A DNA stretch of 60,278 bases, filler included, from Stramenopiles sp. TOSAG23-6 (Eukaryota): assembly GCA_900128565.1 (NCBI GenBank). It is 14 parts of 14 records of this genome, joined end to end, with 100 filler letters (N's around TTAATTAATTAA, not from the genome) between each part and the next. Parts side by side here need not be neighbours in the genome. Positions count along the whole stretch, not along the records: positions 25,937 to 30,146 come from LT637225.1; positions 30,247 to 34,453 come from LT637226.1; positions 34,554 to 38,760 come from LT637227.1; positions 38,861 to 43,067 come from LT637228.1; positions 43,168 to 47,372 come from LT637229.1; positions 47,473 to 51,676 come from LT637230.1; positions 51,777 to 55,977 come from LT637231.1; positions 56,078 to 60,278 come from LT637232.1; 6 more parts are not named here. One strand, given 5' to 3'. Each line of letters begins with the position of its first letter. Within the stretch, counting starts at the first letter, position 1. The notes below the pieces were generated by a model that saw only the letters and a program-made list of their open reading frames with translations, did no database searches and was not told the DNA's origin. A program made the translations under genes and the position numbers. Shown piece after piece: positions 28,344-59,971 of this stretch.

Positions 28344-30141
28344 ATGGTTAATGCTGGAAAAGGGCAGCGGAAATCTTCACCGAAAAGGTCAACTTGGAAA
28401 AATGCTTCCGCTATTGTGGTTGGAACAATCATGGGCACTGGAGTGCTAGGTCTTCCAGGGGCTTTTCGAAACCTTGGGTGGATATTAGGTACTCTCTCAG
28501 TCGTAGGTTTTGCATATTCTGGTTTATATTCGGGTTTACTTCTGAGTAGAACTTATACCCTCTACCCTCACTGTGTTTCGTATGCCGATGTTGCCCGTGA
28601 AGTTGTTGGGCATCGTTTTGGTATATTGACAGAAATTTTAATTCTGACAAGCTGGGCTGCTGTTTTACCTTATTTTTTAGTTTCTGCAGCATCCACTTTA
28701 AATATGGCATTTGCATCTAGTGAGTGGTGTTTTTACACATGGACAGCAGTAGTCTGTTGTTTAGTTATGCTTCCACTTCAATTTCGTTCCTTAACGTCTG
28801 TAGCAAATTTTGCTCTTTTATCAGATCTTACAGTAATTTTGGCTTTACTTATTATTGTGTACACTATAGCTACTGAAGACAGACCATATTTTCGTCAAGA
28901 TGATATTGACAAAAGTAAAACTAGTTGGTATCCAGTTGAAGGACATAATGTAGTGGAGGTGTACGTTTTCAAAATTATTTTTTTTACTTAATTTTTTTTT
29001 CGTACGAAATTCCGTACCTAACATTTTTTTTTACTAAAAAAAAATATTTTTTCACAATATGTATACGCAGATTTTTCATCGTTTGTATTTGCCTACCAAG
29101 GTCAATCGATTTTCTTAGAAATCATGTCAGANNNNNNNNNNNNNNNNNNNNNNNNNNNNNNNNNNNNNNNNNNNNNNNNNNNNNNNNNNNNNNNNNNNNN
29201 NNNNNNNNNNNNNNNNNNNNNNNNNNNNNNNNNTTTCAATTTCGAATTTATTTTTTTTTCGTACGAAATTTCGTACCTAACAAATTTTCCTAAAAAAAAA
29301 TATTTTTCACAATAAAAGTACCATTACGTATACATCCCTTGGTGGAAATACGACAGGATTCCTGCCAGATTCTTTACCACATGATGCTCATACAACAAGA
29401 ATGGTGGTTGGTGTTTTACTTTTATATCATATTTGTGTTAGTTTTATAATAACTGCTATTCCATTTGTATCCAAAATCCATTCTCGCTTGTATCCAGAAA
29501 GTGCAAAACTGCTTGCGTCAATCAACTTAAATCAACAGAGTTTGGACAATAATATTGAAATCTGGGAGGATAAAGTGGCACTTTTTCAAGAATCTCCACC
29601 ACTTTCCCCTGCATCTGAAGAATTTAAATTACATAGGGAACGTGAATCATCTGCGTCTTCTTCTAGAGTAAGTACTCAGAATTTCTCTCAAGATGAATCA
29701 GTAGCAAGAGAAATTGCAATTTCGACGACAATTCATTTAGACAATCAAACAGAAAACAAAATACCAATAAAAGTACAAACATCTCTATCAGAGTCACAAA
29801 ATAGAAGCATTTGCAAAGAGTGGCTGTACATCACATCAATACTAATTTTTTGTTGCTTCCTAGTTGCAAATTTGATTCCCTTTTTTGCCGCATTTCAAGA
29901 AATAGTGGGTGCATTATTAGGAGCCCCAACAATGTTTGGTTGGCCAGTTTTATTCTATTTGAGAGCTGCTTCATTAAACCATATAAAAATATCGACATTT
30001 GATAAAATTATGTGCGGGATATTCTTTTTTGTACTAATGCCAACGTGTACTATTTTAGGCTTTACTGCAGCTATGCGAGTATTAATTAGTAATTGGAGTA
30101 CATATGGGAAACCATTCGATTGTTTAATACGACCAGAATAA
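28344..30141 (+). CDS. Amino-acid transporter (AAAP/Aa_trans), multi-exon with N-gap
   Basis: GTIMGTGVLGLP..LGW, SYADVA, FAYQGQSIFLEIM, NLIPFF...VGALLG. Confidence 0.9.
28961..29062 (+). mobile_element. Introner-like intron GT..GT (102 nt)
   Basis: GT|GTACGT...CAATATGT|; restores VEVYADFSSFVFAYQGQ; the nearby AG is out of frame. Confidence 0.85.
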
Positions 30142-30376
30142 TTAATNNNNNNNNNNNNNNNNNNNNNNNNNNNNNNNNNNNNNNNNNNNNTTAATTAATT
30201 AANNNNNNNNNNNNNNNNNNNNNNNNNNNNNNNNNNNNNNNNNNNNCATCATGAATTTTTTACCAAAATTTTTTTTTTTTTTTTTTTTTTTCGTAAAAAA
30301 AAAAAATAAAAAAAAAAAAAAATTGTACCTAACAAACAAACCAAAAATAACATTGAAATATTGTACAAAACTACAG

Positions 30377-32047
30377 AATCGTCGTGATGTGAAGAAAATG
30401 TCAGGAATAAAAGAAAAACGTAAATCAATTCAAGCCGAGTCTAATAAAAGATTGCAAAATATACGAGAAAATGCCGCTGCTTCAAAAATACAGTCTTTAT
30501 TCCGCATTAAAAAAGCTCGCGATGAAATTAGAATTCGACAAAATGAGAATGAGGCAGCACTTGCTGCTGCAAGTAGCCCTGAGGAACGTGAACGTTTGAA
30601 GAGAAAGCAAGCAGATGAAATGGCAGCTATGAAAATGGCTGGTTCTATGAAGAGTCTCATGGCTGATAAGTTGGCAAAACAGAAAGCAGCAGAACGTCAA
30701 GAAGCTGAAAAAATAGAGAGTGCTCATGTTCAACATGAATTGGAACAGCATAGTGCAACGTTACTCCAAAAAATGTATTTTTTATTTTTTTTCAAATTTC
30801 ATTTTTTTTTTATAGTAAATTTTGTACCTAACAAATTTTTTTTTTTACGAAAAAAAAAAAAATATTTTTTACAAAAAATGTATCGTTCAAAGCGGGATCG
30901 TGATCATTGTACAAAGCTTATCAAAGACTTGAGAGCAAAACATGGTAATTCGATATCTATTGCAGAGTTACGTGCTCGATCCAAAGCTGAATTGGAAGAA
31001 ACAAAGAGGAAAAAAGAAGCTGCAGCAATCAAACTAAAGCTTGCAGGAAATGCAGAACAAGAAGCAGAAATGCAGGCGGCAACCACACGGTTGCAAAGTA
31101 TGTTTCGAGGTTCAAAAGCAAGACAAATACGTAGAGATAAACAAGCTGAATTTGAGAAGCGTGAAAAAGAAGAAAAGCAAAAGGACAAAGCAGCATTACA
31201 AATGCAAATGTTATTCCGTGGGAAAAAAGCTAGAAGTGCATATGACTTGAAAAAGGCTGAATATGAAAAACGACGTCAGGCTCTGTTAGAACAGGAAGGT
31301 ATGAAAGAAGAATTAGAAAGATTAAAGAGGCAACAAGATCGAGAGCTTTGTGCCTTACGTGTCCAATCGGTAATGCGATCTAGATGGGCTCGAAGAAAGG
31401 CAAAAGATATGGCTCGTCGTAAAGAACGCGCTCGCCGTGAGGTCCAACGAAGGCTTAATGAGAAAAATTCGGCTATTATTATTCAATCAATGTATCGTTC
31501 TCGAAGAGACAGACAACAAATTCAGGCGATGCGACGTCAAGCTAAAGTTGCTGCAAGGAAGCGTGCTAAAGCATCAGCTGAAGTTGACGCACAAACAAAG
31601 CAAGAGGAAGCATTGCAGCAAGACAAATGGATAGAATATTGGGATGAGGGAGCCCAAGCTTATTATTGGTTTAATCCAAGAACCCAAGAAGCTAGGTGGG
31701 ATAACCCCAATGATGATAGCACTGACACACATGCAGGAATGGAATCAACCACAATGGACACTGGGTATGAGAGCGCATATACTCATGGGACGGTAACTGA
31801 CTATGATACAGATAATGTAGATTATGGCTATAATGATAGTAGCAATGAATATGGCTATCAGGCGGAAACACAATACGATGAATATGGTAACCCTATCTAT
31901 CAAGACGCAGGATATGGAGAAGAATCATATGGCGCTGGTAGCTACTCTGAAACTTCTGGAGCATCAGAATGGACAGAACACTATGATGATGCCAGTGGTC
32001 AGACGTATTATTTTAATGCTTCTACTGGTGAAACTCAGTGGGCATGA
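30377..32047 (+). CDS. IQ-motif coiled-coil protein with two WW domains, 5' partial
   Basis: IQSLFR, LQSMFRG, IQSMYRS motifs; WIEYWDEGAQAYYWFNPRTQEARWDNP; upstream partial intron ends CTACAG. Confidence 0.85.
   Translation, partial: NRRDVKKMSGIKEKRKSIQAESNKRLQNIRENAAASKIQSLFRIKKARDEIRIRQNENEAALAAASSPEERERLKRKQADEMAAMKMAGSMKSLMADKLAKQKAAERQEAEKIESAHVQHELEQHSATLLQKMYFLFFFKFHFFFIVNFVPNKFFFLRKKKKYFLQKMYRSKRDRDHCTKLIKDLRAKHGNSISIAELRARSKAELEETKRKKEAAAIKLKLAGNAEQEAEMQAATTRLQSMFRGSKARQIRRDKQAEFEKREKEEKQKDKAALQMQMLFRGKKARSAYDLKKAEYEKRRQALLEQEGMKEELERLKRQQDRELCALRVQSVMRSRWARRKAKDMARRKERARREVQRRLNEKNSAIIIQSMYRSRRDRQQIQAMRRQAKVAARKRAKASAEVDAQTKQEEALQQDKWIEYWDEGAQAYYWFNPRTQEARWDNPNDDSTDTHAGMESTTMDTGYESAYTHGTVTDYDTDNVDYGYNDSSNEYGYQAETQYDEYGNPIYQDAGYGEESYGAGSYSETSGASEWTEHYDDASGQTYYFNASTGETQWA
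30775..30879 (+). mobile_element. Introner-like intron GT..AT (105 nt, 3n, no in-frame stop)
   Basis: Removal restores IQ motif LLQKMYRSKR; 12-nt direct repeat at junctions. Confidence 0.88.
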
Positions 32048-32168
32048 GTTTGAAAGATTATTACTGTTATTATATTAATATAAAGAGTTTCTTTTATGTA
32101 CCTTTTATCTTCTTTGGTGATTCTATGAAAAACACTCCAATCAACACAAACGATGTTGCTATTGTTAT

Positions 32169-32858
32169 TCACTCTTCAAAAAATGCAACATACTGCGTAT
32201 GCCCTTTTGCAAAGGTAGAAAAACTCACATGTTGATTAAATTCATCAGATACAAGGAACTCTTCAAAAATGTTGCGCCGCGCAGAAAATGGAAGGTCATA
32301 AAATTTAAGTTCATCTAAATCCAAAGCAGTTGTATCAGCCGAACTGTCAACGACTGGAATCTCTGGGTCCGCAGCAATATAGTCTTGACTTCCTTTTACA
32401 TATGGGATGAAACCTTCTGACTTGACCTCCTCGGATGCTGAAGAAAAATCGTGGAATATTTTTAGTCGTAGTGATTTAACAAGATGGTGAAAACCAATAG
32501 CATATAAATTTTCATCCATCACGTGAATTTCTCCCCGACTTCTTGGTTCATCGTCCAACAGTGATACCACTGAAAGATCTTCATCGAGTGGTACAAGTTT
32601 ATCGATTGGTGCGTCTTCGGGAATTGGAGCAAGTGTTTGTGTTTCTTCAATGGGAATCTCTGTGACTGATGGTGTATAATTTTGCGTTTTGTAAGGTTGT
32701 TCACTGTAATCTCCGCCTCTAAACTTTTTATTTTTCGATCCTTTTGACTTTTTTGTGTCTTCGTTCTTCGGTTTGCCTGAACAAAATCCGAAGCAACCAG
32801 CATAGGTTCCCTCAATGCTTAATACAAAACATACGAATATTAGGAGTGAAAACTTCAT
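32169..32858 (-). CDS. Secreted protein of unknown function
   Basis: Signal peptide MKFSLLIFVCFVLSIEGTYA; 229-aa ORF. Confidence 0.65.
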   Translation of the reverse strand: MKFSLLIFVCFVLSIEGTYAGCFGFCSGKPKNEDTKKSKGSKNKKFRGGDYSEQPYKTQNYTPSVTEIPIEETQTLAPIPEDAPIDKLVPLDEDLSVVSLLDDEPRSRGEIHVMDENLYAIGFHHLVKSLRLKIFHDFSSASEEVKSEGFIPYVKGSQDYIAADPEIPVVDSSADTTALDLDELKFYDLPFSARRNIFEEFLVSDEFNQHVSFSTFAKGHTQYVAFFEE

Positions 32859-33178
32859 GGAATTATAGTAAAGTGTCTAAATGATACTTTTCAAATATGA
32901 ATAAAATAGAGAATGATGTTATTTTAAGGTGAGATTATTGAAAAGATACTAGCTAGCATACCGTAGTATTTTTAGCATGATTTTTGAGATTGGAAAAAGT
33001 TGTATTATTTCGTGTATTTATTTTGTTTTGAACAAAATTTTCTAAAATAACGGCTAGCCTAGATACGGCGTATCTATTTTAAATACGTACAAGTATTTTG
33101 TGCATCTTATCCGAATAACGGTTATCTACACCGTACAGTATCATTTCAAGAAAACAAATCTAAATTATTTCAAAAAGA

Positions 33179-34345
33179 ATGAAGAAGGTTATCTTATCAA
33201 GCTTTGCTGTAGCAAACGTAGCACGATCTGCAATAATTCCTCATAAAGAACTTCTTGACCAATGGGATGTCCTTACGAATGAGTTTAATAATATTAACAT
33301 TGACTCAAACGCTAACACGGAATACCGTACTCTAATGGCTCGTATGCGTTTACAATTAGCGAAATACGCGCTTTTCGCAGATAATTTGGAAAAAATTGAG
33401 AGAGACACAATTCTCGATATCGCTGAAAAAATCTTTCAGAACGTTCATCCTTTGTCGATGCGAGCTCTGGGTAATGTTCTCCGAATTGCTGAAGGTATGA
33501 ATCCTACAAATCCCTCGGAACCTGTTTTGACATTTCTCAACAACTCTAATCCACCACAGCAACCTCCCGGAGAAAACATATTGTTACGTCCTCTTCTAAA
33601 TTTTCAAAACCAAATAACGGCTAGTCCACCCGTTGATCAATTACTTGCTGGTGAGTTAGCAAAACAAGGTTCATGGTTGTATACTGCTTCAAAAGAAGGT
33701 AATGAAGAAGCCGTTCGTCAACTTATCGCTCTTGGTGTTGATGTCAATGACGCTGATAAAGACGGATATACGCCATTGTATATTGCTTCACAGAATGGTC
33801 ATGTTAAAGTAGTTGAAGAACTTCTCAAAGCGAAGAATATTGATGTCAATCTAGCTGCAAAAGACGGCGATACACCATTGCATGTTGCTTCATATCACGA
33901 TCATGTTGGAGTAGTTCGACTACTTATTGAGAATGGTGCTGATGTCAACGCTGTTTATGAGGAATGGACCCCATTGTATATTGCTTCGGAAGAAGGTAAT
34001 GTAGCAGTAGTTGAAGAACTGCTCAAAGCAAAGGGAATTAACATTAATAAGGCTGATAAACACGGAGTTACCCCATTGTCAACTGCTTCACGGGATGGTC
34101 GTGTTGAAGTCGTTAAATTACTTCTTGAAATGGGTGCTGATGTCAATCAGGTTGATAAATTCGAAAGAACCGCATTGTATGGTGCTTCAGAGAAGGGTCG
34201 TGAAGGAGTAGTTAAACTACTTATTGCTGCAGATAAAGTTGATGTCAATAAGGCTGACAAAAACGGAGCTACCCCATTGTTGATTGCTTCACGGTATGGT
34301 CATAAAAAAGTAGTTGAATTACTTAAGGATGCAGGTGCAGAGTAG
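33179..34345 (+). CDS. Ankyrin-repeat protein (~7 repeats), possible signal peptide
   Basis: Repeated GxTPL..AS..G...VV..LL. Confidence 0.9.
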   Translation: MKKVILSSFAVANVARSAIIPHKELLDQWDVLTNEFNNINIDSNANTEYRTLMARMRLQLAKYALFADNLEKIERDTILDIAEKIFQNVHPLSMRALGNVLRIAEGMNPTNPSEPVLTFLNNSNPPQQPPGENILLRPLLNFQNQITASPPVDQLLAGELAKQGSWLYTASKEGNEEAVRQLIALGVDVNDADKDGYTPLYIASQNGHVKVVEELLKAKNIDVNLAAKDGDTPLHVASYHDHVGVVRLLIENGADVNAVYEEWTPLYIASEEGNVAVVEELLKAKGININKADKHGVTPLSTASRDGRVEVVKLLLEMGADVNQVDKFERTALYGASEKGREGVVKLLIAADKVDVNKADKNGATPLLIASRYGHKKVVELLKDAGAE

Positions 34346-34683
34346 AGAGCTTGGGATGAACACCATATGTAACCCCTTTCGAATGGGAAAACAATACCAG
34401 GCCATGACGTATCCATACCCAATGTTCATACAGTGAAGAAAGATATAATAAAANNNNNNNNNNNNNNNNNNNNNNNNNNNNNNNNNNNNNNNNNNNNTTA
34501 ATTAATTAANNNNNNNNNNNNNNNNNNNNNNNNNNNNNNNNNNNNNNNNNNNNCATCATGAATTTTTTACCAAAATTTTTTTTTTTTTTTTTTTTTTTCG
34601 TAAAAAAAAAAAATAAAAAAAAAAAAAAATTGTACCTAACAAACAAACCAAAAATAACATTGAAATATTGTACAAAACTACAG

Positions 34684-36354
34684 AATCGTCGTGATGTGAA
34701 GAAAATGTCAGGAATAAAAGAAAAACGTAAATCAATTCAAGCCGAGTCTAATAAAAGATTGCAAAATATACGAGAAAATGCCGCTGCTTCAAAAATACAG
34801 TCTTTATTCCGCATTAAAAAAGCTCGCGATGAAATTAGAATTCGACAAAATGAGAATGAGGCAGCACTTGCTGCTGCAAGTAGCCCTGAGGAACGTGAAC
34901 GTTTGAAGAGAAAGCAAGCAGATGAAATGGCAGCTATGAAAATGGCTGGTTCTATGAAGAGTCTCATGGCTGATAAGTTGGCAAAACAGAAAGCAGCAGA
35001 ACGTCAAGAAGCTGAAAAAATAGAGAGTGCTCATGTTCAACATGAATTGGAACAGCATAGTGCAACGTTACTCCAAAAAATGTATTTTTTATTTTTTTTC
35101 AAATTTCATTTTTTTTTTATAGTAAATTTTGTACCTAACAAATTTTTTTTTTTACGAAAAAAAAAAAAATATTTTTTACAAAAAATGTATCGTTCAAAGC
35201 GGGATCGTGATCATTGTACAAAGCTTATCAAAGACTTGAGAGCAAAACATGGTAATTCGATATCTATTGCAGAGTTACGTGCTCGATCCAAAGCTGAATT
35301 GGAAGAAACAAAGAGGAAAAAAGAAGCTGCAGCAATCAAACTAAAGCTTGCAGGAAATGCAGAACAAGAAGCAGAAATGCAGGCGGCAACCACACGGTTG
35401 CAAAGTATGTTTCGAGGTTCAAAAGCAAGACAAATACGTAGAGATAAACAAGCTGAATTTGAGAAGCGTGAAAAAGAAGAAAAGCAAAAGGACAAAGCAG
35501 CATTACAAATGCAAATGTTATTCCGTGGGAAAAAAGCTAGAAGTGCATATGACTTGAAAAAGGCTGAATATGAAAAACGACGTCAGGCTCTGTTAGAACA
35601 GGAAGGTATGAAAGAAGAATTAGAAAGATTAAAGAGGCAACAAGATCGAGAGCTTTGTGCCTTACGTGTCCAATCGGTAATGCGATCTAGATGGGCTCGA
35701 AGAAAGGCAAAAGATATGGCTCGTCGTAAAGAACGCGCTCGCCGTGAGGTCCAACGAAGGCTTAATGAGAAAAATTCGGCTATTATTATTCAATCAATGT
35801 ATCGTTCTCGAAGAGACAGACAACAAATTCAGGCGATGCGACGTCAAGCTAAAGTTGCTGCAAGGAAGCGTGCTAAAGCATCAGCTGAAGTTGACGCACA
35901 AACAAAGCAAGAGGAAGCATTGCAGCAAGACAAATGGATAGAATATTGGGATGAGGGAGCCCAAGCTTATTATTGGTTTAATCCAAGAACCCAAGAAGCT
36001 AGGTGGGATAACCCCAATGATGATAGCACTGACACACATGCAGGAATGGAATCAACCACAATGGACACTGGGTATGAGAGCGCATATACTCATGGGACGG
36101 TAACTGACTATGATACAGATAATGTAGATTATGGCTATAATGATAGTAGCAATGAATATGGCTATCAGGCGGAAACACAATACGATGAATATGGTAACCC
36201 TATCTATCAAGACGCAGGATATGGAGAAGAATCATATGGCGCTGGTAGCTACTCTGAAACTTCTGGAGCATCAGAATGGACAGAACACTATGATGATGCC
36301 AGTGGTCAGACGTATTATTTTAATGCTTCTACTGGTGAAACTCAGTGGGCATGA
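34684..36354 (+). CDS. IQ/WW protein (duplicate copy; intron 35082-35186)
   Basis: Identical to 30377-32047. Confidence 0.8.
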   Translation, partial: NRRDVKKMSGIKEKRKSIQAESNKRLQNIRENAAASKIQSLFRIKKARDEIRIRQNENEAALAAASSPEERERLKRKQADEMAAMKMAGSMKSLMADKLAKQKAAERQEAEKIESAHVQHELEQHSATLLQKMYFLFFFKFHFFFIVNFVPNKFFFLRKKKKYFLQKMYRSKRDRDHCTKLIKDLRAKHGNSISIAELRARSKAELEETKRKKEAAAIKLKLAGNAEQEAEMQAATTRLQSMFRGSKARQIRRDKQAEFEKREKEEKQKDKAALQMQMLFRGKKARSAYDLKKAEYEKRRQALLEQEGMKEELERLKRQQDRELCALRVQSVMRSRWARRKAKDMARRKERARREVQRRLNEKNSAIIIQSMYRSRRDRQQIQAMRRQAKVAARKRAKASAEVDAQTKQEEALQQDKWIEYWDEGAQAYYWFNPRTQEARWDNPNDDSTDTHAGMESTTMDTGYESAYTHGTVTDYDTDNVDYGYNDSSNEYGYQAETQYDEYGNPIYQDAGYGEESYGAGSYSETSGASEWTEHYDDASGQTYYFNASTGETQWA

Positions 36355-36475
36355 GTTTGAAAGATTATTACTGTTATTATATTAATATAAAGAGTTTCTT
36401 TTATGTACCTTTTATCTTCTTTGGTGATTCTATGAAAAACACTCCAATCAACACAAACGATGTTGCTATTGTTAT

Positions 36476-37165
36476 TCACTCTTCAAAAAATGCAACATAC
36501 TGCGTATGCCCTTTTGCAAAGGTAGAAAAACTCACATGTTGATTAAATTCATCAGATACAAGGAACTCTTCAAAAATGTTGCGCCGCGCAGAAAATGGAA
36601 GGTCATAAAATTTAAGTTCATCTAAATCCAAAGCAGTTGTATCAGCCGAACTGTCAACGACTGGAATCTCTGGGTCCGCAGCAATATAGTCTTGACTTCC
36701 TTTTACATATGGGATGAAACCTTCTGACTTGACCTCCTCGGATGCTGAAGAAAAATCGTGGAATATTTTTAGTCGTAGTGATTTAACAAGATGGTGAAAA
36801 CCAATAGCATATAAATTTTCATCCATCACGTGAATTTCTCCCCGACTTCTTGGTTCATCGTCCAACAGTGATACCACTGAAAGATCTTCATCGAGTGGTA
36901 CAAGTTTATCGATTGGTGCGTCTTCGGGAATTGGAGCAAGTGTTTGTGTTTCTTCAATGGGAATCTCTGTGACTGATGGTGTATAATTTTGCGTTTTGTA
37001 AGGTTGTTCACTGTAATCTCCGCCTCTAAACTTTTTATTTTTCGATCCTTTTGACTTTTTTGTGTCTTCGTTCTTCGGTTTGCCTGAACAAAATCCGAAG
37101 CAACCAGCATAGGTTCCCTCAATGCTTAATACAAAACATACGAATATTAGGAGTGAAAACTTCAT
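36476..37165 (-). CDS. Secreted protein (duplicate copy)
   Basis: Identical to 32169-32858. Confidence 0.6.
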   Translation of the reverse strand: MKFSLLIFVCFVLSIEGTYAGCFGFCSGKPKNEDTKKSKGSKNKKFRGGDYSEQPYKTQNYTPSVTEIPIEETQTLAPIPEDAPIDKLVPLDEDLSVVSLLDDEPRSRGEIHVMDENLYAIGFHHLVKSLRLKIFHDFSSASEEVKSEGFIPYVKGSQDYIAADPEIPVVDSSADTTALDLDELKFYDLPFSARRNIFEEFLVSDEFNQHVSFSTFAKGHTQYVAFFEE

Positions 37166-37485
37166 GGAATTATAGTAAAGTGTCTAAATGATACTTTTCA
37201 AATATGAATAAAATAGAGAATGATGTTATTTTAAGGTGAGATTATTGAAAAGATACTAGCTAGCATACCGTAGTATTTTTAGCATGATTTTTGAGATTGG
37301 AAAAAGTTGTATTATTTCGTGTATTTATTTTGTTTTGAACAAAATTTTCTAAAATAACGGCTAGCCTAGATACGGCGTATCTATTTTAAATACGTACAAG
37401 TATTTTGTGCATCTTATCCGAATAACGGTTATCTACACCGTACAGTATCATTTCAAGAAAACAAATCTAAATTATTTCAAAAAGA

Positions 37486-38652
37486 ATGAAGAAGGTTATC
37501 TTATCAAGCTTTGCTGTAGCAAACGTAGCACGATCTGCAATAATTCCTCATAAAGAACTTCTTGACCAATGGGATGTCCTTACGAATGAGTTTAATAATA
37601 TTAACATTGACTCAAACGCTAACACGGAATACCGTACTCTAATGGCTCGTATGCGTTTACAATTAGCGAAATACGCGCTTTTCGCAGATAATTTGGAAAA
37701 AATTGAGAGAGACACAATTCTCGATATCGCTGAAAAAATCTTTCAGAACGTTCATCCTTTGTCGATGCGAGCTCTGGGTAATGTTCTCCGAATTGCTGAA
37801 GGTATGAATCCTACAAATCCCTCGGAACCTGTTTTGACATTTCTCAACAACTCTAATCCACCACAGCAACCTCCCGGAGAAAACATATTGTTACGTCCTC
37901 TTCTAAATTTTCAAAACCAAATAACGGCTAGTCCACCCGTTGATCAATTACTTGCTGGTGAGTTAGCAAAACAAGGTTCATGGTTGTATACTGCTTCAAA
38001 AGAAGGTAATGAAGAAGCCGTTCGTCAACTTATCGCTCTTGGTGTTGATGTCAATGACGCTGATAAAGACGGATATACGCCATTGTATATTGCTTCACAG
38101 AATGGTCATGTTAAAGTAGTTGAAGAACTTCTCAAAGCGAAGAATATTGATGTCAATCTAGCTGCAAAAGACGGCGATACACCATTGCATGTTGCTTCAT
38201 ATCACGATCATGTTGGAGTAGTTCGACTACTTATTGAGAATGGTGCTGATGTCAACGCTGTTTATGAGGAATGGACCCCATTGTATATTGCTTCGGAAGA
38301 AGGTAATGTAGCAGTAGTTGAAGAACTGCTCAAAGCAAAGGGAATTAACATTAATAAGGCTGATAAACACGGAGTTACCCCATTGTCAACTGCTTCACGG
38401 GATGGTCGTGTTGAAGTCGTTAAATTACTTCTTGAAATGGGTGCTGATGTCAATCAGGTTGATAAATTCGAAAGAACCGCATTGTATGGTGCTTCAGAGA
38501 AGGGTCGTGAAGGAGTAGTTAAACTACTTATTGCTGCAGATAAAGTTGATGTCAATAAGGCTGACAAAAACGGAGCTACCCCATTGTTGATTGCTTCACG
38601 GTATGGTCATAAAAAAGTAGTTGAATTACTTAAGGATGCAGGTGCAGAGTAG
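37486..38652 (+). CDS. Ankyrin-repeat protein (duplicate copy)
   Basis: Identical to 33179-34345. Confidence 0.85.
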   Translation: MKKVILSSFAVANVARSAIIPHKELLDQWDVLTNEFNNINIDSNANTEYRTLMARMRLQLAKYALFADNLEKIERDTILDIAEKIFQNVHPLSMRALGNVLRIAEGMNPTNPSEPVLTFLNNSNPPQQPPGENILLRPLLNFQNQITASPPVDQLLAGELAKQGSWLYTASKEGNEEAVRQLIALGVDVNDADKDGYTPLYIASQNGHVKVVEELLKAKNIDVNLAAKDGDTPLHVASYHDHVGVVRLLIENGADVNAVYEEWTPLYIASEEGNVAVVEELLKAKGININKADKHGVTPLSTASRDGRVEVVKLLLEMGADVNQVDKFERTALYGASEKGREGVVKLLIAADKVDVNKADKNGATPLLIASRYGHKKVVELLKDAGAE

Positions 38653-38914
38653 AGAGCTTGGGATGAACACCATATGTAACCCCTTTCGAATGGGAAAACA
38701 ATACCAGGCCATGACGTATCCATACCCAATGTTCATACAGTGAAGAAAGATATAATAAAANNNNNNNNNNNNNNNNNNNNNNNNNNNNNNNNNNNNNNNN
38801 NNNNTTAATTAATTAANNNNNNNNNNNNNNNNNNNNNNNNNNNNNNNNNNNNNNNNNNNNTTGTACCTAACAATTTTTTTAGAATTTTTTTTGAAATATT
38901 TTTCCAAAATACAT

Positions 38915-41900: not shown

Positions 41901-42536
41901 AGTCTATTGTTCGTGATGTTGTGTATAGCTGGATTGTCACTTGTCATCAAAATACAAAAAATACAGAAAATACAGAAAATACAGAAAATACAGAAAATAC
42001 AGAAAATACAAAATCGATTCTATCCAAAAACACACGAAATCTGATAATTAAATGTCTTGGATTTTCTGTACCCAACCAAATGACAAATGATGAATTTTGG
42101 TCATATTGGAAGAAAGGCCTTTATACACAACTACAACATGAATCGATAACACAAGATATATCTATACATAGATTTTTAGAATACAAACAACAAAGGGCTT
42201 CAACGCTAGGAATCATTCAAAAACACGAAAAAACAATATTTGAATATAATATAAAACGAGAGAAAAGTCTACTGTATGTTGTATTTTTTTTTTGTTTTCG
42301 AAAAAAAAATCGATTTTTGTTTTTTATACGAAATTTTGTACCTAACGAATTTTTTTTTTGAAATATTTTTCCAAAATACATGCATTTTTGTGGGATAATT
42401 CGTGAATTGGAACAACGTCGATTATGGCAAAAAAGAGCTGAATTACAGACTACATCAAGCGCAGCTGTTGTTGCTTGGCATCGAATTTTAAATAGTGTAA
42501 TGCATGTACTTTTTTATCATGAACATTTTCAAATTT

Positions 42537-42579
<43 letters not shown>

Positions 42580-42988
42580 ACCAAAATCCATACCTAACAA
42601 ATTTTTATCTAAAAAAAAGATATTTCTTCACAGTGTATGAACGTGGACTTTGGGGCAGTTTAAATTCTATGATTGAAAGTGATGTAACCAATGAAAGCTG
42701 TAATAGAATGGTTCCATCCTCTTTACTATCACCTTCATCATCAACAACACCATCTAATCATTCAAAATTTGGACAACAACAACAAAAGAAACAAAAAAAA
42801 ATGTTTTGGGAGCTTGGAGTATTTTTTTTTTTTCATACATTTTTTTTTCGATTTTGTTTTTGCATAAGAATATCATGAATAACAATTTTTTTATCCTAGC
42901 ATTATTTCACACTAACCCTAACCCTAACCCTAACCCATAATTATTTCACACTATAGGCAACATCAGGCCGCCAATTAGGAAAACGCAT
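38915..42988 (+). CDS. Internal fragment of a large multi-exon protein, probably BEACH family
   Basis: Spliced WHRILNSVMH|ERGLWG...FWEL resembles the region preceding PH-BEACH; Asn-rich inserts; 8 or more introns. Confidence 0.55.
39396..39495 (+). mobile_element. Introner-like intron GA..AT (100 nt)
   Basis: AT|GAATGTTTT...AAAATACAT|; in frame GKSYHNHH. Confidence 0.7.
39748..39830 (+). mobile_element. Introner-like intron GT..AT (83 nt)
   Basis: AT|GTATGT...AAAATACAT|; in frame. Confidence 0.8.
41096..41257 (+). other. Degenerate family intron GT..AG with duplicated donor region
   Basis: TT|GTATGT...AAGTACAG|; in frame LLCVLEPID. Confidence 0.6.
41416..41618 (+). other. Expanded T-rich family intron GT..AT
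   Basis: TC|GTTTGT...TAATAAAT|; in frame SRSRMLWC. Confidence 0.6.
42274..42381 (+). mobile_element. Introner-like intron GT..AT (108 nt)
   Basis: CT|GTATGT...AAAATACAT|; in frame. Confidence 0.75.
42506..42638 (+). mobile_element. Introner-like intron GT..AT (133 nt)
   Basis: AT|GTACTT...CAGTGTAT|; the CAG 5 nt upstream is out of frame. Confidence 0.75.
42819..42956 (+). other. GT..AG intron containing (CTAACC)4
   Basis: GGA|GTATTT...CTATAG|GCA; telomeric tract 42912-42936. Confidence 0.6.
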
Positions 42989-47279: not shown

Positions 47280-47331
47280 ATGTATTGTGTGAATTTTTTT
47301 TTTTTTTTTTTTTTTTTTTTGGGAAAAAATT

Positions 47332-47372
<41 letters not shown>

Positions 47373-51776: not shown

Positions 51777-52746
51777 ATAAATGGATGGGTAAATCGGAGA
51801 AAGGTGATTCAACAAAAAATGACAAATCAAAGTTTGTAGCAATGTCTTTGTTGTATCAAAGAGAAAGCCAAAAGCCGGATTGGCCGAATACACTAAAAAC
51901 GTTGAAGGAAGCGGCGAAAAACAACGGTACTTTGAAGAATATTGAAAATGAAGCTGATAAATGGATGGGTAAATCGGAGAAAGGTGATTCAACAAAAAAT
52001 GACAAATCAAAGTTTATAGCAATGTCTTTGTTGTATCAAAGAGAAACCCAAAAGCCGGATTGGCCCAATACACTAAAAATGATGAAAAAACAAGCGGAGA
52101 GCAATGATACTTTGAAGAATATTGAAAATGAAGCTGATAAATGGATGAGTAAATTCGAGAAAGGCGGTTCAGCAACAAATGACAAGTCAAAGTTTGTAGC
52201 AATGTCTTTGCATGTTTTATTTTTTTTTAAATTTGAGTTTTTTTTTCGTACGAATTTTTGTACCTAACGATTTTTTTTTGAAATATTTTTCCAAAATACT
52301 TGTTGTATCAGAGAGACATTCAGAAAGAAAATTGGCCTACAATTTTCAAAACGTTAAAGGAAGAACAGGCTAGTAGCATGGATTTAATATTAAAAGAAGC
52401 TTTAAAAATGAAACAAATATTGGAAACGGGAGCAACTAAAGCACAACCAGCAGAATCTCAAGGCAGCGACGACAATATTGAAGAAAAGGCAAAACATTTG
52501 ATGAATAAATTGAAACTTGGATTGGATACCTCTGAAGGTTCAACCGAATCGGTGAATGAAGGAATAGATCAAGCAAAATTGGATGAGTGTATTTCTCATA
52601 TCAAAACGGAAGTAACAAAGAAAAATTTTCATNTAATTTTTAAGCGTCATAAAAAAGAAATGGGCTGTAATATTTTATCATTGGCAAAAAATACGTTACT
52701 ACANGAAGGTTATAAATGTTTCTGTAACAATGCTAGTAAAAAATAA
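51777..52746 (+). CDS. Protein with 60-aa (180-bp) tandem repeats, 5' partial
   Basis: KWMGKSEKGDSTKNDKSKFVAMSLLYQRE units; third unit interrupted. Confidence 0.75.
52210..52301 (+). mobile_element. Introner-like intron GC..TT (92 nt)
   Basis: TT|GCATGT...AAAATACTT|; the empty site is visible in two preceding repeat units. Confidence 0.92.
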
Positions 52747-52918: not shown

Positions 52919-54641
52919 TTACATTATAAATGCTCTAACAAGATTCTCTACTTTAAATTTTTTCCCTGTAGTTGGACAAATTACATGACTACCTCCATTT
53001 ATTTTCGCAGACAAATCCATCCAAGATTTACTAAAGACTTCGCCATTAGGTAACACCATTGGAGGATTTTTCTCATCCATTGGTAATTTTGAAGCCCTAC
53101 AGACAAGTCGCGTATGTATTATAAAAAAATATTTCAAAAATTTGATTTTTTTTGATTTTTCAGTTAGGTACAGAATTCCGTATGAAAAAAAAATAAATTT
53201 AATTTTGAAAACATGCATGTGAAAGACGAGTCGATGGAAGTGGTTTTGTAAGTTCTCCTAGTACACTATCACAACAAGGACATTCAACTNATTTCGTGTT
53301 TTTATTGAAACATGCAGGACCTTTCAAAGCACCTGTATTGTTAAAAAGTANTAAAAGATAAAAAAAATAAAAGTCGTTTGGTACAAATTTTTCCGACCAA
53401 AAAAAAATTAAAGGTAGGGTTAGGGTTTGTTGAAAAAACGTACTTAGTCCTGCTTCTAAATGTAAAGATAGTAAAGAAAAATACGATATACCGAATATTT
53501 TCCTAAAACTAGTATCAAATAATTGAGTAATAATATTCCACCGTGACGGACAAAATAAATCAGAATATGCCTCAGGGATGTATTTCGGAAAAATATTTCA
53601 AAAAAAAAATTAAAAATTTATTAGGTACAAAATTTCGTACGAAAAATAATTTCGATTTTTTTTTACCGGAAAAAAAAAAAAATAAAACGTACATTGTTGA
53701 TTCAAGAGATTCACTGGAAGGACTTGTAAATGCTAGGGTTGTCCTAGACTATTAAAACAATATTTTTCAAAAATTTAAAATTTGTTAAAAAGATATTTTC
53801 TAAAAATTTAAAATTTGTTCAATGTGCTAGTACTACAATTGAAATTATAGGAATAGAAAAAAAAAATTAAAAAAAAATTAAAAAAAAATTAAAAAAAAAT
53901 GTTAAGTACAAAATTAAGTACGAAAAAAAAAATGTAGATGAAAACGTACATTACTCTTTGTACTGTCTGTAATTGATCTGGGTTTGAAGATGCATCTTGA
54001 AAATATTTCCGCGCTATGATAATTGCTTTTGATCTCTCACCTTTCCGAACATGTTCTATAAACTCTTGTACACGAAGATGAAATTCTAGATTGCTTTTAA
54101 TCCGTCTTAGTTTTGACTTATTTTCTTCAACCCACTGAAAAGCTAATTTAAATTCTTTTCTCCGCAAACTCTCTCGGATTCGTCTCGCTTCTTCCCAAAG
54201 TTTATAATCAGTCAAGTCTTCAATATNACAATAATTAGCAAGTAAACGAGCACTTTGGAATTTTCCAGTTTGAAGGAAGTGTTCTAATAATAAAATAGTA
54301 ATTCTATGCTTNGAAACGTCAGCAGGGTTATTGATGTGTTGAATTCGTTTTTGGACGGTCTGGAGACATTCTTTTTCTCTTTTATCAAATATAGTCTGCT
54401 GNTTCTTTAATTCTGATAAACGCGAATNTATTTCACTCAACCGAGCTAATACGTCCGCATTTGTTTTATCTCTATTTATTTGTACAAGTTCTTTGATTTG
54501 TTTCACTGTCGCTACAACTTTCTTTTCAGTGGTTCGCTGAGAAATTCTAAAATTACGGGAAAAGTTTTCAAATGGAACTCGTAAAAATGATCTGTCCATC
54601 GGGAACTCATCATTCAGTGTACGTGGTGTCTTTTTCTCCAT
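52919..54641 (-). CDS. MAEA: MAEA/Fyv10 (GID/CTLH E3 ligase subunit), 5 exons
   Basis: LRVPFE, SNLEFHLRVQEFIE, LEAGLSALK, RLVC...NPPMVLPNG; introns 53744-53949, 53578-53692, 53333-53443, 53114-53216. Confidence 0.9.
53114..53216 (-). mobile_element. Introner-like intron GC..AT (103 nt)
   Basis: AT|GCATGT...TAATACAT|; gives LSHTRLVC. Confidence 0.88.
53333..53443 (-). other. Family intron with canonical GT..AG ends (111 nt)
   Basis: AA|GTACGT...CAATACAG|; gives EAGLSALK. Confidence 0.88.
53578..53692 (-). mobile_element. Introner-like intron GT..AT (115 nt)
   Basis: AT|GTACGT...GAAATACAT|; in frame. Confidence 0.85.
53744..53949 (-). other. Degenerate family intron GT..AG (206 nt)
   Basis: AT|GTACGT...GTCTAG|; gives QRVMTTLAF. 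Confidence 0.8.
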
Positions 54642-55043: not shown

Positions 55044-55894
55044 ATGCAATATTCAGGTCAGATACAAGACGGTAAGATGCATGGGAAAGGCACGCTTATA
55101 TATCAAAATGGAGAAAAATACCAAGGTGATTGGGTAATGGGGAAACGCCATGGCGTTGGATCATATATTTATCTTGATGGGGGTAGATACGAAGGCGAAT
55201 GGGTTGATGACAGGATTACAGGAAAGGGGAAAAGTATATACGCAAATAAAAACGTTTATGTTGGAGACTGGGCAGATGGTAATATTTCGGGGTTTGGTGT
55301 ACTGACCTATGTTGATGGCGATAAGTACGAAGGAGAATGGGCATCTAATCAAATGCATGGTAATGGAACTTATTTTTACGCAAGTGGAGATATGTATAAG
55401 GGCGAATGGAGAAACGATAAACGGCATGGTAGAGGGGTAGTTTCTTACATGCAAATGTATGTTTTATTTTTTTTAATTTCGAATTTATTATTTTTTTCGT
55501 ACGAAATTTTGTACCTAACGAATTTTTTTTCAATTTAGAATTTATTTTTCCAAAATACATAGATGGTAAAACGGTTGCTGAGAAATACGATGGTGAATGG
55601 TCCTGTGGAAAGATGCATGGAAATGGAAAATATTATTATTCTGATGGAGGAATATATGAAGGCCAATGGGTTGACTCAAAAATGGTCGGGAAAGGAACGT
55701 ATTTGTTTGCTAATGGCAATAAATATGAAGGCGATTGGAAAAATGACGTAAAAGATGGTCACGGCATACTCACTTACGTGAATGGAGAGCGATTCGATGG
55801 AAATTGGAAAAATGATAAAGCACATGGATTGGGCTCTATTATATATGTATCTGGTGATAAATTTTCTGGGAATTGGGTAGAAGGTAAAAAACAT
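55044..55894 (+). CDS. MORN-repeat protein, 3' partial
   Basis: Repeated YEGEW..D..HG.G...Y. Confidence 0.9.
55457..55560 (+). mobile_element. Introner-like intron GT..AT (104 nt)
   Basis: AT|GTATGT...AAAATACAT|; gives [18 protein letters not shown]. Confidence 0.88.
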
Positions 55895-56269
55895 GTATGT
55901 TTTATTTTTTTTCAAATTGGAGTTTTTTTTTTCGTACGAAATTTTGTACCTAACAAATTTTTTAGAATTTTTTTTGANNNNNNNNNNNNNNNNNNNNNNN
56001 NNNNNNNNNNNNNNNNNNNNNTTAATTAATTAANNNNNNNNNNNNNNNNNNNNNNNNNNNNNNNNNNNNNNNNNNNNACCATTTTTTCCAAAAATCCTTA
56101 ATCTTCAAAAAAAATCAGATCTGTGCGCGGTGTGATAGCAAATATTTAGTATTATTTACGCGACTGTTCGTACTACAATAAATACAGTACTACCTCTACT
56201 TTTTCACGGACGACGAGGCGGAAAGTAAAATCAATCATCTAACAAAAGCAAACATTACACAAATAAGAA

Positions 56270-57346
56270 ATGAATTTGTTGTTTACCTTGTTACTGTTTA
56301 CTTCTGTAAATGTCTCTTTATGTGATCAACACGTAGACTACCACAAATTAAATCTGAATGATTTGCAAAAGCTTCTGAAAAAGCGACGTCTCAATTGCTT
56401 AGCCTGTACTTCACGTGACCATTTAGTGCAACGTTTGGAAAAGGACGATAATAAGAAAAAACAACAAAAAAAGGGTAAAAAGAAGAAACCAAAATATGGA
56501 AAGAAGGATAAAAAACAGAAACGAAAACAACGAAAGAAACAAAAAGGGAGCTCGTCAAATTATCAGTTATTACACTATTTCAATACGGCCAGAGACCAAA
56601 TTATGAAGCTGTACTCTGAAAACACGATTTATTTTCTATGTGGGGTCAATATCTTTATATTTCTGCTTTGGCTAGTACCTTCATTTGTACCATTTCTTCT
56701 TGTACACACAACGTTTCGATTTCCTCCTTCTGCTCTGGCTGTAGTGTTTTGCACCTTTTCTCATGCTTCATTAATGCATCTAGTATTTAATATGACTTTA
56801 TTGTGTAATGCTGGTCCAGTCTTAGCTAGTGAATTAGAAATAATGGGTTATGATTATAACACATTTGTATTACTTTATATTTTAGTTGGAAATATATCAT
56901 TCTGTGCAGCTTGTTTGTTTTCATCATGAATTTGAAAAGTATTCTGAAATCTAAAGATTTCAAAGAAATTTCTTGAACCTAACAAAGTTCAATGTTTTGA
57001 AATATTATTGCACAATACATCTATATATAACTGGCGTAGTCGTTATAACAGACAGTATATGGGTGCGTCACCATCATGCCTTTTTATTTATTTATTATGT
57101 GCATTGATGAATCCAACTGATCGAGTTTTACTTTATAGTTTTGAGACAAATCGTCTCGTGTCTGCTTTCGCAATTTTAATTGTTGATATATTGATGTCTT
57201 CAAGTGCAGGTGCTGTGGATTATTCTACTCGTCTGAGTACTCTAGCATGCGCATTTTATATGTCACACTATTTACAACTAGATATTGTTCATTACAATAT
57301 GAACGATTTTATTAATGTATTCAAACAAGGTGTACCAAGAATTTGA
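56270..57346 (+). CDS. Rhomboid-family membrane protein with N-terminal signal and Lys-rich region (2 exons)
   Basis: FSHASLMHLVFNM and YMGAS; intron 56913-57020. Confidence 0.7.
56913..57020 (+). mobile_element. Family intron GT..AT (108 nt), diverged interior
   Basis: TT|GTTTGT...AACCTAAC...CAATACAT|; in frame. Confidence 0.75.
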
Positions 57347-57392
57347 TGTAAAACCGACACAACTTTTGAAAAGGTACAATTTTTTTTTTCGA

Positions 57393-57423
<31 letters not shown>

Positions 57424-57502
57424 TGAAATTCATAATGAAAACAAAACATAAATCATTATTATCAACTACTCGATTTATTCTTTATTAGTGATTATTGTTT
57501 TT

Positions 57503-58571
57503 TTAAAAATCAGAATATATACCATTTTTATCATCTTCAGTTACAACGAATGGAGGACATTTAGTGGAAGGGTCAATTTTAACAAAACCTTCGGAGTTAT
57601 GAAAAGTATGTATTGTACAACAATATTTTTTTAGTTGAAATTCGTTAGGTACAAAATTTTTATAAAAAACCAAAAAAAAAAAATAAATTTGAAATTCATG
57701 ATGAAAAACGTACGTAACGACCACGAATGTAATCCAACAAATCTTGAAAGTGTTCAAGAAAGACAATGCATAAATGTCGATGTGGATGAACTAATTCGTT
57801 TGTAGTCATTTTCCCATATAAAATACCGAGTATTATGTATAAAACAAAAAATAGTACAGCAAAAAATAAAATTTTTGTTGTCAAACTCCAGTCAGAGTTG
57901 TTGTTAGGGTTAGGGTTAAGCTTTGTCGAACACGCCAACTTTGTCTGAAATACTGCAATATATACGCATGCATCATTTTGTGTTACACTTGAAAGAAACA
58001 TATCTTTTTTACCACATTCGAAACTAATTTGAACGCTGTTTCTTTTTTGAAACTTTGGATAATCCAAATTTTTACATTTTTCTAAAGAAGAATTGTTCAT
58101 TAAGTCACCATCATATGAATAAGCAGCAGTGAAGTCTTCAAGTTGTGTTTCATTCACAGGTTTTGGAAATCCAGCACCCAAGACTGTACATCGTCTTGTA
58201 CATGCTTCGATTGAGTTAGTTATCTTGTCTGTACACTGCGAGTCTACAGGCAACTCCACAGACTCATCAGAAAACATTGTTGCGTATCCATATTGAAGAA
58301 CATACGGGTTATTACCTCTAGTATCTGGGGACAAACAGCTTGGTGCAAGAGTTCCAATACCAACATAAAATGTAATGTTTTCAAATGGAGACATACCTGT
58401 AACATTATACAATCCACAATAGGGTATCAACGTTTCTAAATCAAAAACAGAGCTTTCAAGTTGACTGGCTAAAAAGACTTCATCACACTTTGCAGTTTCA
58501 CTTGCAGCAGAGGCTACCTTTCCTAATAAAAGTGTGAATGTAACATAAAGCATGTATTGTAATAGTGACAT
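57503..58571 (-). CDS. ATG27/mannose-6-phosphate-receptor-like type I membrane protein (2 exons)
   Basis: Signal peptide, R.SVQISFECG...CVY.AVFQTKLAC, TM ...LYIILGILY, HPH. Confidence 0.65.
57608..57713 (-). mobile_element. Introner-like intron GT..AT (106 nt)
   Basis: AC|GTACGT...CAATACAT|; in frame. Confidence 0.78.
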
Positions 58572-58978
58572 TGCTGGTTGTTGTACAGTAATTGTTTTCT
58601 CGATAGAAGAAGCAAAAATTACACTAAAGTTACGAATGAATATGTAAAGAGAGTAACACCTGTAACCCCTCTATAATAGGTAAGTTATAACGTGGCTTCC
58701 AGCTAGTCAAAAAAATAGCAGATTTGAAATTGTCTTGTTTTGAACAAGTGTGTTACCTATTATTTTATTTGTCTTATCTGTTTTATTTTCGTATAATCAT
58801 ATAAACCATTTTCATCTAGTTTGATAATGACATGTTGTAGGTACCCTATTTCATGCTTTGGAAGAATATAAATTCAATATAAATCATATTTTTTTTTTAT
58901 TATTATTATTATTATTATATAAATTGTAGTGCAAATTCAATATAAATCATATTATTTTTATTATTATTATTATTATTA

Positions 58979-59971
58979 TTATATAAATTGTAGTGCAAAC
59001 GCTCTATTCCCAAAGTTAGTATTAGCAAAGATATCAACTACAGAATTTTCTCTACTAGCACCAGCAGCAGCTAGACACTGAAAATCTTCAACTGGATTAA
59101 TACCAAGACAATATAGCGAACTTGTACCCTCTGTTGCTTTCACATGTATTGTAGTACAATATTTCAATTTGTAAAATTTGTTAGGTACAAAATTTCATAC
59201 CAAAAAAAAAATTTAAAAAAATAAAAAAAATCTTTTTTGTTTAGGTACAAAATTTTCATACAAGTAAAAAAACGTACGTGACTAATTAATTCACCATTAT
59301 GTTTCCAAGTAGATACGTAAGGTGACGCACCGACAGAAGAAAATTGATTTGGTTCTGACCCTAAACCAATTGGATGGCATTGAACCGCATTAACAACTTC
59401 ATTTGTTGACCACGCAAAAGTTCCTGAAAAACTTGTAGCATGTTTTATGAAAAAATATTTCAAATGTTTTTTTCATAGTAAATTTTGTACCTAACAAATT
59501 TTCAAAAAAAAAAAAAAAAAAAAGTTTTGTTTAGGTACAAAATTTCGTACCAAAAAAAAAATGAAATTCATGATGAAAACGTACATGTACTACGTGAAGA
59601 AATCCATTAGACTTTGTGGATTTCTGTTGTGTTACATTTGTACGTGATGTCTTATCTACAGACACACGTATTGTGAAAAAATATTTCAAAAAAAAATCTA
59701 AAAAAATCGTTAGGTACGAAATTTTTTTACCAAAAAAAAAAAAAATTAAATTAGAAATTCATATAAAAAATACACTAGTGACGTCACTTTCGTAACCACC
59801 TCCGATAATGATCCAATTCCCTGTATCATCAGCTCCAAGAGAACTAACCCAAGATTTTCTATGTTTTTCTTTCAAGTTTTTTCTTGTTGAAATATTTTTT
59901 AAAGTTATATTTGACATATCTATCTTATGAACTTGCTGTTCTGTACGAGGATCCCAAAATCGTACAGTTCC
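58979..59971 (-). CDS. THOC6: THO complex subunit 6-like WD40 protein, C-terminal 4 exons
   Basis: GTVRFWD, WVSSL...NWIIIGGG, AAAG...VDIFANTNFGNRAFALQF. Confidence 0.7.
59144..59277 (-). mobile_element. Introner-like intron GT..AT with tandem core (134 nt)
   Basis: AC|GTACGT...CAATACAT|. Confidence 0.8.
59440..59584 (-). mobile_element. Introner-like intron GT..AT with inverted second core (145 nt)
   Basis: AT|GTACGT...TAAAACAT|. Confidence 0.8.
59666..59773 (-). mobile_element. Introner-like intron GT..GT (108 nt)
   Basis: GT|GTATTT...CAATACGT|; in frame. Confidence 0.8.

Follow-up and report, generated by a model that had tools for sequence, protein, structure and literature searches.

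Henriet et al. (2019) reportedly described non-canonical introns derived from miniature inverted-repeat transposable elements (MITEs) in the tunicate Fritillaria borealis. In the accessible part of PMC11282704, the commonest introns of this tunicate are AG-AC and AG-AT, belong to diverse families and carry terminal inverted repeats and target duplications; an exonic TAC copy of the target formed the non-AG 3′ splice site, and the spliceosome is a modified U2 one. The introners of Micromonas pusilla and Aureococcus anophagefferens, as the available sections of PMC11282704 and PMC7789003 present them, are short, non-autonomous elements lying sense in genes in thousands of copies, with clear inverted repeats and GT/GC-AG ends, one splice site coming from the element and the other from a target duplication that has 3 nucleotides (nt), co-opted as AG, in Micromonas and is otherwise longer. 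Amoebophrya A25 and A120, marine protists, have according to a portion of PMC7789003 repeated introns with non-GT-AG ends, direct repeats of 3-5 nt at the borders and inverted repeats of 8-20 nt that form a hairpin; these introns fall into many families with no preferred terminal dinucleotides, and in that portion U1 is given as not found. The introns of euglenids and of hemistasiid/eupelagonemid diplonemids likewise combine non-GT-AG ends, border repeats and a suspected MITE origin, together with paired ends and the lack of a U1-like donor (partial texts of PMC6221363 and PMC12621601). Here we analyse a ~100-base element that interrupts coding exons in a stretch of DNA from Stramenopiles sp. 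TOSAG23-6 (GenBank assembly GCA_900128565.1), 60,278 nt long with filler and referred to as the window, and ask how this element compares with those systems.

An introner-type family with an element-borne donor, branch site and T tract, for which the duplicated 2 nt serve as a non-AG acceptor, is the explanation that we consider probable. Such a family would insert into coding exons, each insertion duplicating two target bases, in most cases AT and in some GT or TT. Three splicing signals would come from the element: a strong donor, GTATGT or GTACGT, that starts with the first base; GTACCTAAC, a block resembling a branch site and placed 31-50 nt before the end; and a T-rich tract with a conserved 3′ block behind it. 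The acceptor would be the downstream copy of the duplicated dinucleotide, so that Y-A-T is read at the exon border instead of Y-A-G, and splicing would remove the element with one copy of the duplication and restore the original exon. What marks the non-AG acceptor is probably its place behind the conserved 3′ block, together with a final T. We infer that removal is spliceosomal and takes place at the RNA level, and that an enzyme stands behind the duplication.

In its logic this family resembles the Fritillaria and Micromonas types, from which it would be set apart, on comparison of the described features, by a donor and branch block of textbook type, a duplication of 2 nt, AT, GT or TT acceptors and the absence of end pairing. 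With Fritillaria it shares recent introns from mobile elements, a target duplication that yields a non-AG acceptor and AT as a common ending, as far as the excerpted source goes; it differs from it in its GTATGT donor, its 2-nt duplication, its one dominant family and its lack of conserved end pairing. The principle of a duplicated target acting as non-AG acceptor is already known from the Fritillaria lineage in the accessible part of PMC11282704, and the idea put forward in an earlier reading of this DNA (the original prediction) is less novel than was supposed there. Compared with Micromonas and Aureococcus, the co-opted acceptor is AT, GT or TT, and canonical GT/GC-AG introner ends are not what the 35 unique complete copies have (AT 30, GT 3, TT 1, AG 1). 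The introners of Amoebophrya are similar in being repeated introns of a marine protist, with non-GT-AG ends and direct repeats over the borders, but assignment to that type was rejected on a repeat of exactly 2 nt in 18/35 copies, a fixed donor and a consensus fold free of hairpins. A euglenozoan nonconventional intron was rejected on a GT start in 31/35 copies and a consensus fold, computed from 14/35 copies, in which the ends are unpaired.

The window consists of 14 contigs of ~4.2 kb each, in size order, joined by N44-TTAATTAATTAA-N44 linkers (for example 4241-4340), and holds 58.8 kb of non-N sequence; the element counts are for this window only. Two contigs, 30247-34453 and 34554-38760, have identical open reading frame (ORF) lengths and element sequences and are apparently one sequence present twice; one of them was excluded from all counts. 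An nhmmer profile built from the window's own copies gave 54 matches on both strands, a few of which are antisense echoes of a palindromic core, leaving ~50 copies or pieces of one element of 80-145 nt, 36 of them complete with both ends and 35 of these unique. The element begins GTAYGTTTT, continues through CGTACGAAATTTYGTACCTAAC and ends in TTGAAATATTTTTCCAAAATAC, after which come two further bases. Its consensus, ~97 nt long, runs from GTATGTTTT through a T-rich stretch to TTTCGTACGAAATTTTGTACCTAAC and through a second such stretch to TTGAAATATTTTTYCAMAATAC, and the core forms a palindrome of 18 nt in which GTAC motifs recur. Excised units, meaning the element plus 2 bases, span 83-145 nt. 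Pairwise identity has a median of 71%, the closest pair reaching 93%, and against this median the 5′, core and 3′ blocks stand out from the remainder of the element by their much higher conservation. Coding exons of a wide range of unrelated genes are interrupted about once per kb, and the Pfam domains of the genes that hold the 35 unique complete copies are unrelated to one another.

In each of the 35 unique complete copies, the dinucleotide preceding GTAYG at the start was set against the one following ...ATAC at the end. Downstream the pair is AT in 30, GT in 3, TT in 1 and AG in 1; upstream it is AT in 22, AC in 4, GT in 4, TT in 2, and GC, CT and AA in 1 each. The two pairs are identical in 26/35 copies, against a mean of 19.3 in 200,000 shuffles (P(>=26) = 1e-5). 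The non-AT ends match their upstream pair in four of five cases (P = 3.5e-5), namely GT/GT at 28961, 48439 and 59773-59666 and TT/TT at 52210, the fifth, 53443-53333, being AA/AG. Shifting either comparison window by 1-4 bases gives at most 18 identities, compared with 26 at the proposed register. Extended to the left, the repeat is exactly 2 nt in 18/35 copies, and longer matches are about as frequent as chance extension predicts, save in two copies. The co-variation of terminal and upstream dinucleotides, which the original prediction had put forward together with the four non-AT, non-AG copies that repeat their upstream pair, is therefore real. Its count of 22 AT-ending copies after an exonic AT also stands; the total from which these were drawn is 30 unique complete copies in the whole window, not 33, and only 19 AT-ending copies, duplicate contig included, lie in 28959-59775, where the prediction had placed them. 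Of the mismatched copies 8 end in AT, and it is always their exonic pair that deviates, which points to selection on the terminal pair. Two of these mismatches had been taken for later synonymous changes, and indeed the codons that precede 59277 (CAC) and 57713 (TAC) are both in phase 0, where T>C is silent.

One gene in the window preserves an empty site. It contains a three-unit tandem repeat, of which units 1 and 2 (51780-52140) read ...GCAATGTCT TTG TTGTATCA..., and the third unit has 92 extra bases at this TTG, which are the element copy 52210-52301 with TT(G) on both sides. Since units 1 and 2 lack the element, the upstream TT is the original and the terminal TT its copy. The empty site in the paralogous units matches what a target duplication predicts, and it argues against an exon that changed to suit the intron. 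Co-variation and this clean 92-nt insertion together support a 2-nt target duplication flanking the element. Two other duplications were considered and rejected: a 3-nt ATG duplication, with a third base matching in only 23/35 copies, and insertion of a Tc1/mariner-type MITE, for which a TA duplication is typical, the flanks being AT, GT or TT and the TA register failing to restore the exons.

The same two bases are needed to rebuild the genes. The longest open frames abutting each side were joined after removal of the element plus 2 bases, and the frame was restored in 32/36 copies (31/35 unique), the chance expectation being one third. An intron made of the element alone (GT...AC) was rejected, as the frames require the extra 2 nt. 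Copies lie sense to the flanking ORFs in 34/35 cases, which argues for removal at the RNA level and against removal at the DNA level. The first two bases are GT in 31, GA in 2 and GC in 2 copies; 13 copies open with GTATGT and 10 with GTACGT. In 29/35 the motif ACCTAAC puts a branch-like A at a distance of 31-50 nt (median 41) from the end. A pyrimidine (C or T) occupies position -3 in 34/35, and the second exon starts with G in 23/35. Three copies (48822, 42506 and 46101) have an AG 5 nt before the end that goes unused, and AG takes the place of the usual AT in two (53443 and 41153), so the acceptor looks positional, its last base being T and rarely G. Co-variation, frame restoration in 31/35 copies and the register of copy 4919-4810, described below, bear out the proposal that the duplicated target acts as acceptor and that AG is not used.

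Where both flanks are identical, the GT...AT reading and a reading as an AT-AC intron, running from the upstream AT to the element's AC, give the same messenger RNA, and only mismatched copies discriminate between them. An AT-AC intron would be removed by a U2-type (A...C terminal pair) or U12-like spliceosome. AT-AC is a known terminal pair, and the introner survey PMC12130899, in its accessible part, lists AT donors and AC acceptors. Under this register the mismatched copies would start GC, AC, GT, CT, TT or AA, with GTAYGT fixed two bases further in. Copy 4919-4810 splits a J domain (...TLRDIR / GYQFALRICHPDK...), the downstream exon matching positions 21-55 of the DnaJ profile with a weak E = 0.15; the GT...AT reading, which keeps the exonic GC, gives Arg at the junction and the AT...AC reading gives Cys, at a position whose consensus we take to be Lys (Lys or Arg in the family). 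Continuity of this domain supports the downstream copy of the dinucleotide as the intron end. Read by eye, copy 5621-5497 would also acquire a Cys, within a run rich in Glu and Arg. The exons around copies 26744 (a choice of Thr or Met) and 42274 (Leu or Met) gave no Pfam domain, and at copy 55457 the MORN repeats are spaced by 29 and not by 23 under either border, which is uninformative. U12-type introns have an RTATCCTT donor and a branch site 10-26 nt from the 3′ end. The core GTACCTAAC is loosely like the U12 branch consensus, but the start is not RTATCC and the branch-like A, at 31-50 nt, falls outside the 10-26 nt range; with starts of GTATGT or GTACGT, assignment to the U12 (AT-AC) class was rejected. 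We regard the AT-AC register as very unlikely. Removal from RNA by something other than the spliceosome, as for the nonconventional introns of euglenids and some diplonemids, is scarcely better placed and in our view quite improbable. Non-GT-AG ends, short direct repeats at the borders and a suspected mobile origin are traits described for such introns in the partial texts of PMC6221363, PMC12621601 and PMC11282704, but so, in the extract of PMC6221363, are a 5′ end without complementarity to U1 and a stable pairing of the ends. Here GT starts 31/35 copies and GTATGT or GTACGT 23, a branch-like block and T tract are present, and the consensus fold of 14 copies (-0.4 kcal/mol) leaves the ends unpaired.

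Excision might instead act on DNA, as for the internal eliminated sequences of ciliates, or the copies might be insertions that disrupt pseudogenes and are never spliced; this we find hardly credible. Removal would be precise between short direct repeats, and one RNA library holds an unspliced form while no junction read was seen among the matches listed. Against it stand the sense orientation of 34/35 copies, unexpected for DNA excision, the conserved donor, branch and tract signals, the standard stop codons that close the ORFs, and the 31/35 copies that lie between long open frames joining in phase with domains intact. A different origin for the flank was also weighed: the 2 nt could be a crossover or microhomology dinucleotide of the element that is matched in the target, through a circular intermediate of serine-recombinase type or capture at a break by 2-nt homology, which would make the flank partly heritable. 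The lack of a convincing terminal inverted repeat, the 18-nt palindromic core with its GTAC motifs and the longer repeats of 8 and 9 nt in two copies would suit this model, as would the TTTCGTACC / CACAATA block variants shared by all GT-flanked copies, including the cut copy 4160-4240. The empty site at 52210 fits both duplication and crossover. Set against the model are the GT-flanked copies at 2 places on a weak, poorly resolved tree, the AT-flanked copies 949 and 2897 that belong to the same block-variant group, and the failure to find a recombinase in 30 of 47 ORFs >=150 aa. We judge it unlikely. A wider proposal is possible and we hold it tentatively, as rather doubtful: nearly the whole intron set may be one mobile family, served by a spliceosome that has no AG rule, cuts at a fixed place after the 3′ block and takes any duplicated dinucleotide ending in T (YAT, YGT, YTT), even where an AG stands five bases upstream, and the flank may be the heritable 2-nt crossover site of a recombinase.

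Several observations weigh against the introner-type family with a duplicated 2-nt acceptor that we favour. Flanks are mismatched in 9/35 copies, the GC/AT copy needing two changes, and the 8-9 nt repeats in two copies are unexplained by a 2-nt duplication. In those two copies the 3′ end of the intron copies upstream exon bases, 8 in 30775-30879 and 9 in 49789-49889, and both departures of the latter from the family consensus copy the exon. The block variants common to all GT-flanked copies would also fit a heritable flank. The frame is not restored in 4/36 copies (1184, 17658, 28961 and 7997); three of these exceptions involve short or N-cut exons (17658, 28961) or a possibly chimeric contig (7997). 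At copy 7997 the TPP-enzyme Pfam match ends at position 54 of the 137 of its central domain and the gene is not continued in 7997-8573. This contig may be chimeric, fused at the repeat, and the same caution applies to other mismatched copies. The catalogue is biased to well-conserved copies, the diverged ones at 3151-3345, 18345-18255 and 41153-41257 having been excluded. The inverted repeat GTAT(G)TTTT...AAAATAC of the original prediction can be seen in the consensus, yet it was overstated: it amounts to 4 bp plus homopolymer runs of T and A, the GTACGT start of 10/35 copies breaks even the fourth pair, and in the consensus fold no pair joins the ends. A terminal inverted repeat is thus at most marginal. 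A transposase flanked by the same termini had been suggested as a check; among 30 of 47 ORFs >=150 aa, Pfam found no transposase, integrase or recombinase domain. A transposase origin is accordingly unproven, and a staggered-cut DNA transposase is only one route to the 2-nt flank.

RNA-derived contigs add a hint of splicing, not proof, and include further points of the same adverse kind. Contigs from three metatranscriptome runs and one seawater metagenome were aligned to the 4.2-kb contig 56078-60278, yielding 785-1078 aligned contigs from the metatranscriptomes and 5221 from the metagenome. Nearly all lie on element positions and have unlike flanks, exon depth being 0-5, and at element positions the loose ends have a consensus of AT at either side. 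A polyA RNA library yielded one contig (X8 record 31) that breaks off precisely where the 5′ border of intron 60072 lies, as a spliced form would; the other 84 nt of this contig are not among the matches listed, which leaves the hint incomplete. Another RNA-library contig (X6) enters intron 57713 by 31 nt and represents an unspliced form or DNA in the library. No exon-exon joint occurs among the matches listed for 56078-60278, the listed joins being between different element copies. Searches of protein collections for transcript-derived peptides across junctions gave no match within the lengths searched. The exact core 22-mer had no match in public metagenome contigs. A core 17-mer gave 77 loci there, one of them with a true full copy, at 2477-2578 (-) of a 3.2-kb contig of another source (L052), where it has AT/AT flanks and lies inside an ORF. 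A possible GTAAGT...AG intron lies ~90 nt beyond this copy. In viral contigs the 17-mer gave 6 loci, all chance matches, and no related copy.

Table. Copies of the element in the window. Flanks are given as the pair upstream / the pair at the end; names of copies in the text use one border.
Feature	Position	Strand	Flanks	Remarks
Complete copy	200-300	-	AT/AT	frame restored
Complete copy	844-949	-	AT/AT	frame restored
Complete copy	1102-1184	-	AT/AT	longest frames off by 1 nt; exception to the frame rule
Complete copy	2897-3005	+	AT/AT	
Complete copy	4810-4919	-	GC/AT	splits J domain
Complete copy	5286-5384	-	AT/AT	
Complete copy	5497-5621	-	AC/AT	
Complete copy	7997-8094	+	GT/AT	frame not restored; TPP-enzyme gene not continued downstream
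Complete copy	16048-16147	-	AT/AT	between ORFs of 351 and 599 codons
Complete copy	17566-17658	-	AT/AT	ambiguous downstream frame
Complete copy	26651-26744	-	AC/AT	starts GA
Complete copy	28961-29062	+	GT/GT	N run cuts downstream exon
Complete copy	30775-30879	+	AT/AT	12-nt direct repeat across borders; recurs at 35082-35186 on duplicate contig
Complete copy	39396-39495	+	AT/AT	starts GA
Complete copy	39748-39830	+	AT/AT	
Diverged copy, outside counts	41153-41257	+	TT/AG	end ...GTAC AG; in frame at AG
Complete copy	42274-42381	+	CT/AT	
Complete copy	42506-42638	+	AT/AT	AG at 42632-42633 skipped
Complete copy	46101-46203	+	AT/AT	AG at 46197-46198 skipped
Complete copy	47881-47989	+	AT/AT	
Complete copy	48439-48529	+	GT/GT	
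Complete copy	48822-48917	+	AT/AT	starts GTAAGT; AG at 48911-48912 skipped
Complete copy	49789-49889	+	AT/AT	9-nt direct repeat
Complete copy	50111-50199	+	AT/AT	
Complete copy	50302-50392	+	AT/AT	
Complete copy	52210-52301	+	TT/TT	starts GC; not in paralogous repeat units 51780-52140
Complete copy	53114-53216	-	AT/AT	starts GC
Complete copy	53333-53443	-	AA/AG	
Complete copy	53578-53692	-	AT/AT	
Complete copy	55457-55560	+	AT/AT	within MORN-repeat gene
Complete copy	56913-57020	+	TT/AT	
Complete copy	57608-57713	-	AC/AT	TAC codon, phase 0
Complete copy	59144-59277	-	AC/AT	CAC codon, phase 0; internal core duplication
Complete copy	59440-59584	-	AT/AT	inverted internal duplication
Complete copy	59666-59773	-	GT/GT	
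Complete copy	59972-60072	-	AT/AT	within WD40 gene
Copy cut by contig end	1-52	-		
Copy cut by contig end	4160-4240	-		GT end
Copy cut by contig end	4341-4418	+		
Copy cut by contig end	8518-8573	-		AC end
Copy cut by contig end	21624-21705	-		
Copy cut by contig end	29234-29316	+		
Copy cut by contig end	38861-38914	+		
Copy cut by contig end	42989-43067	+		
Copy cut by contig end	47473-47526	+		
Copy cut by contig end	51579-51676	+		
Copy cut by contig end	55895-55977	+		
Copy cut by contig end	60223-60278	-		

Many contigs terminate within an element copy, as is expected because a repeat of this kind breaks assemblies. Other sequences in the window touch the family. The copy at 30271-30364 (= 34578-34671) lies just 5′ of a start codon, likely in a 5′ untranslated region, and its end, ...ACTACAG, resembles a canonical AG at a site without reading-frame constraint. 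A longer interruption at 5030-5170 (-) is composed of several partial, nested copies of the core. At 44123-44564 there is an inverted-repeat element with arms of ~100 nt that share GTACCAAATTCCGTACCTAAG (21 nt) with the intron core, and inside it a perfect 34-nt hairpin (44191-44224 / 44237-44270); it is the only structure related to the family that was found in the window, and may be a relative or source of it.

The window as a whole has the character of an AT-rich marine eukaryote. Its contigs have a G+C content of 23-43%, its DNA is found in three small DNA runs of one organism and partly in seawater metagenomes and metatranscriptomes, standard stop codons terminate its ORFs, and the domains these encode are ordinary eukaryotic ones (amino-acid transporter, RhoGAP, Vps53, SPRY, TPR, ankyrin, MORN, WW/IQ, CTLH, rhomboid and TPP enzyme). 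An Rfam scan of the window gave zero matches. There are 10 short telomere-like tracts, (CCCTAA)2-3, where 0.01 would be expected (4606, 6766, 13544, 39356, 42916-42932, 46508, 53415, 54791 and 57905), mostly inside introns or outside ORFs, and similar tracts are present on the metagenome contig L052.

The family touches two open questions, where new introns come from and how far the spliceosome bends its rules, in that a single element would bring a perfect donor and branch site and leave the acceptor to the insertion event. In the library searched we found no paper on GT-AT introners and none tying the core motif to introns, those retrieved being unrelated. Gene finders based on GT-AG would break almost every gene of this organism. 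Should RNA data confirm the splicing, the copies would provide AT, GT, TT and AG acceptors at one and the same position, a clean natural series in which to study the choice of a 3′ splice site that lacks AG, and the family would join Fritillaria as a second and independent example of how a duplicated target turns into a non-AG acceptor. Its main interest, pending such RNA evidence, is that it would offer a clean natural case of non-AG acceptor choice.

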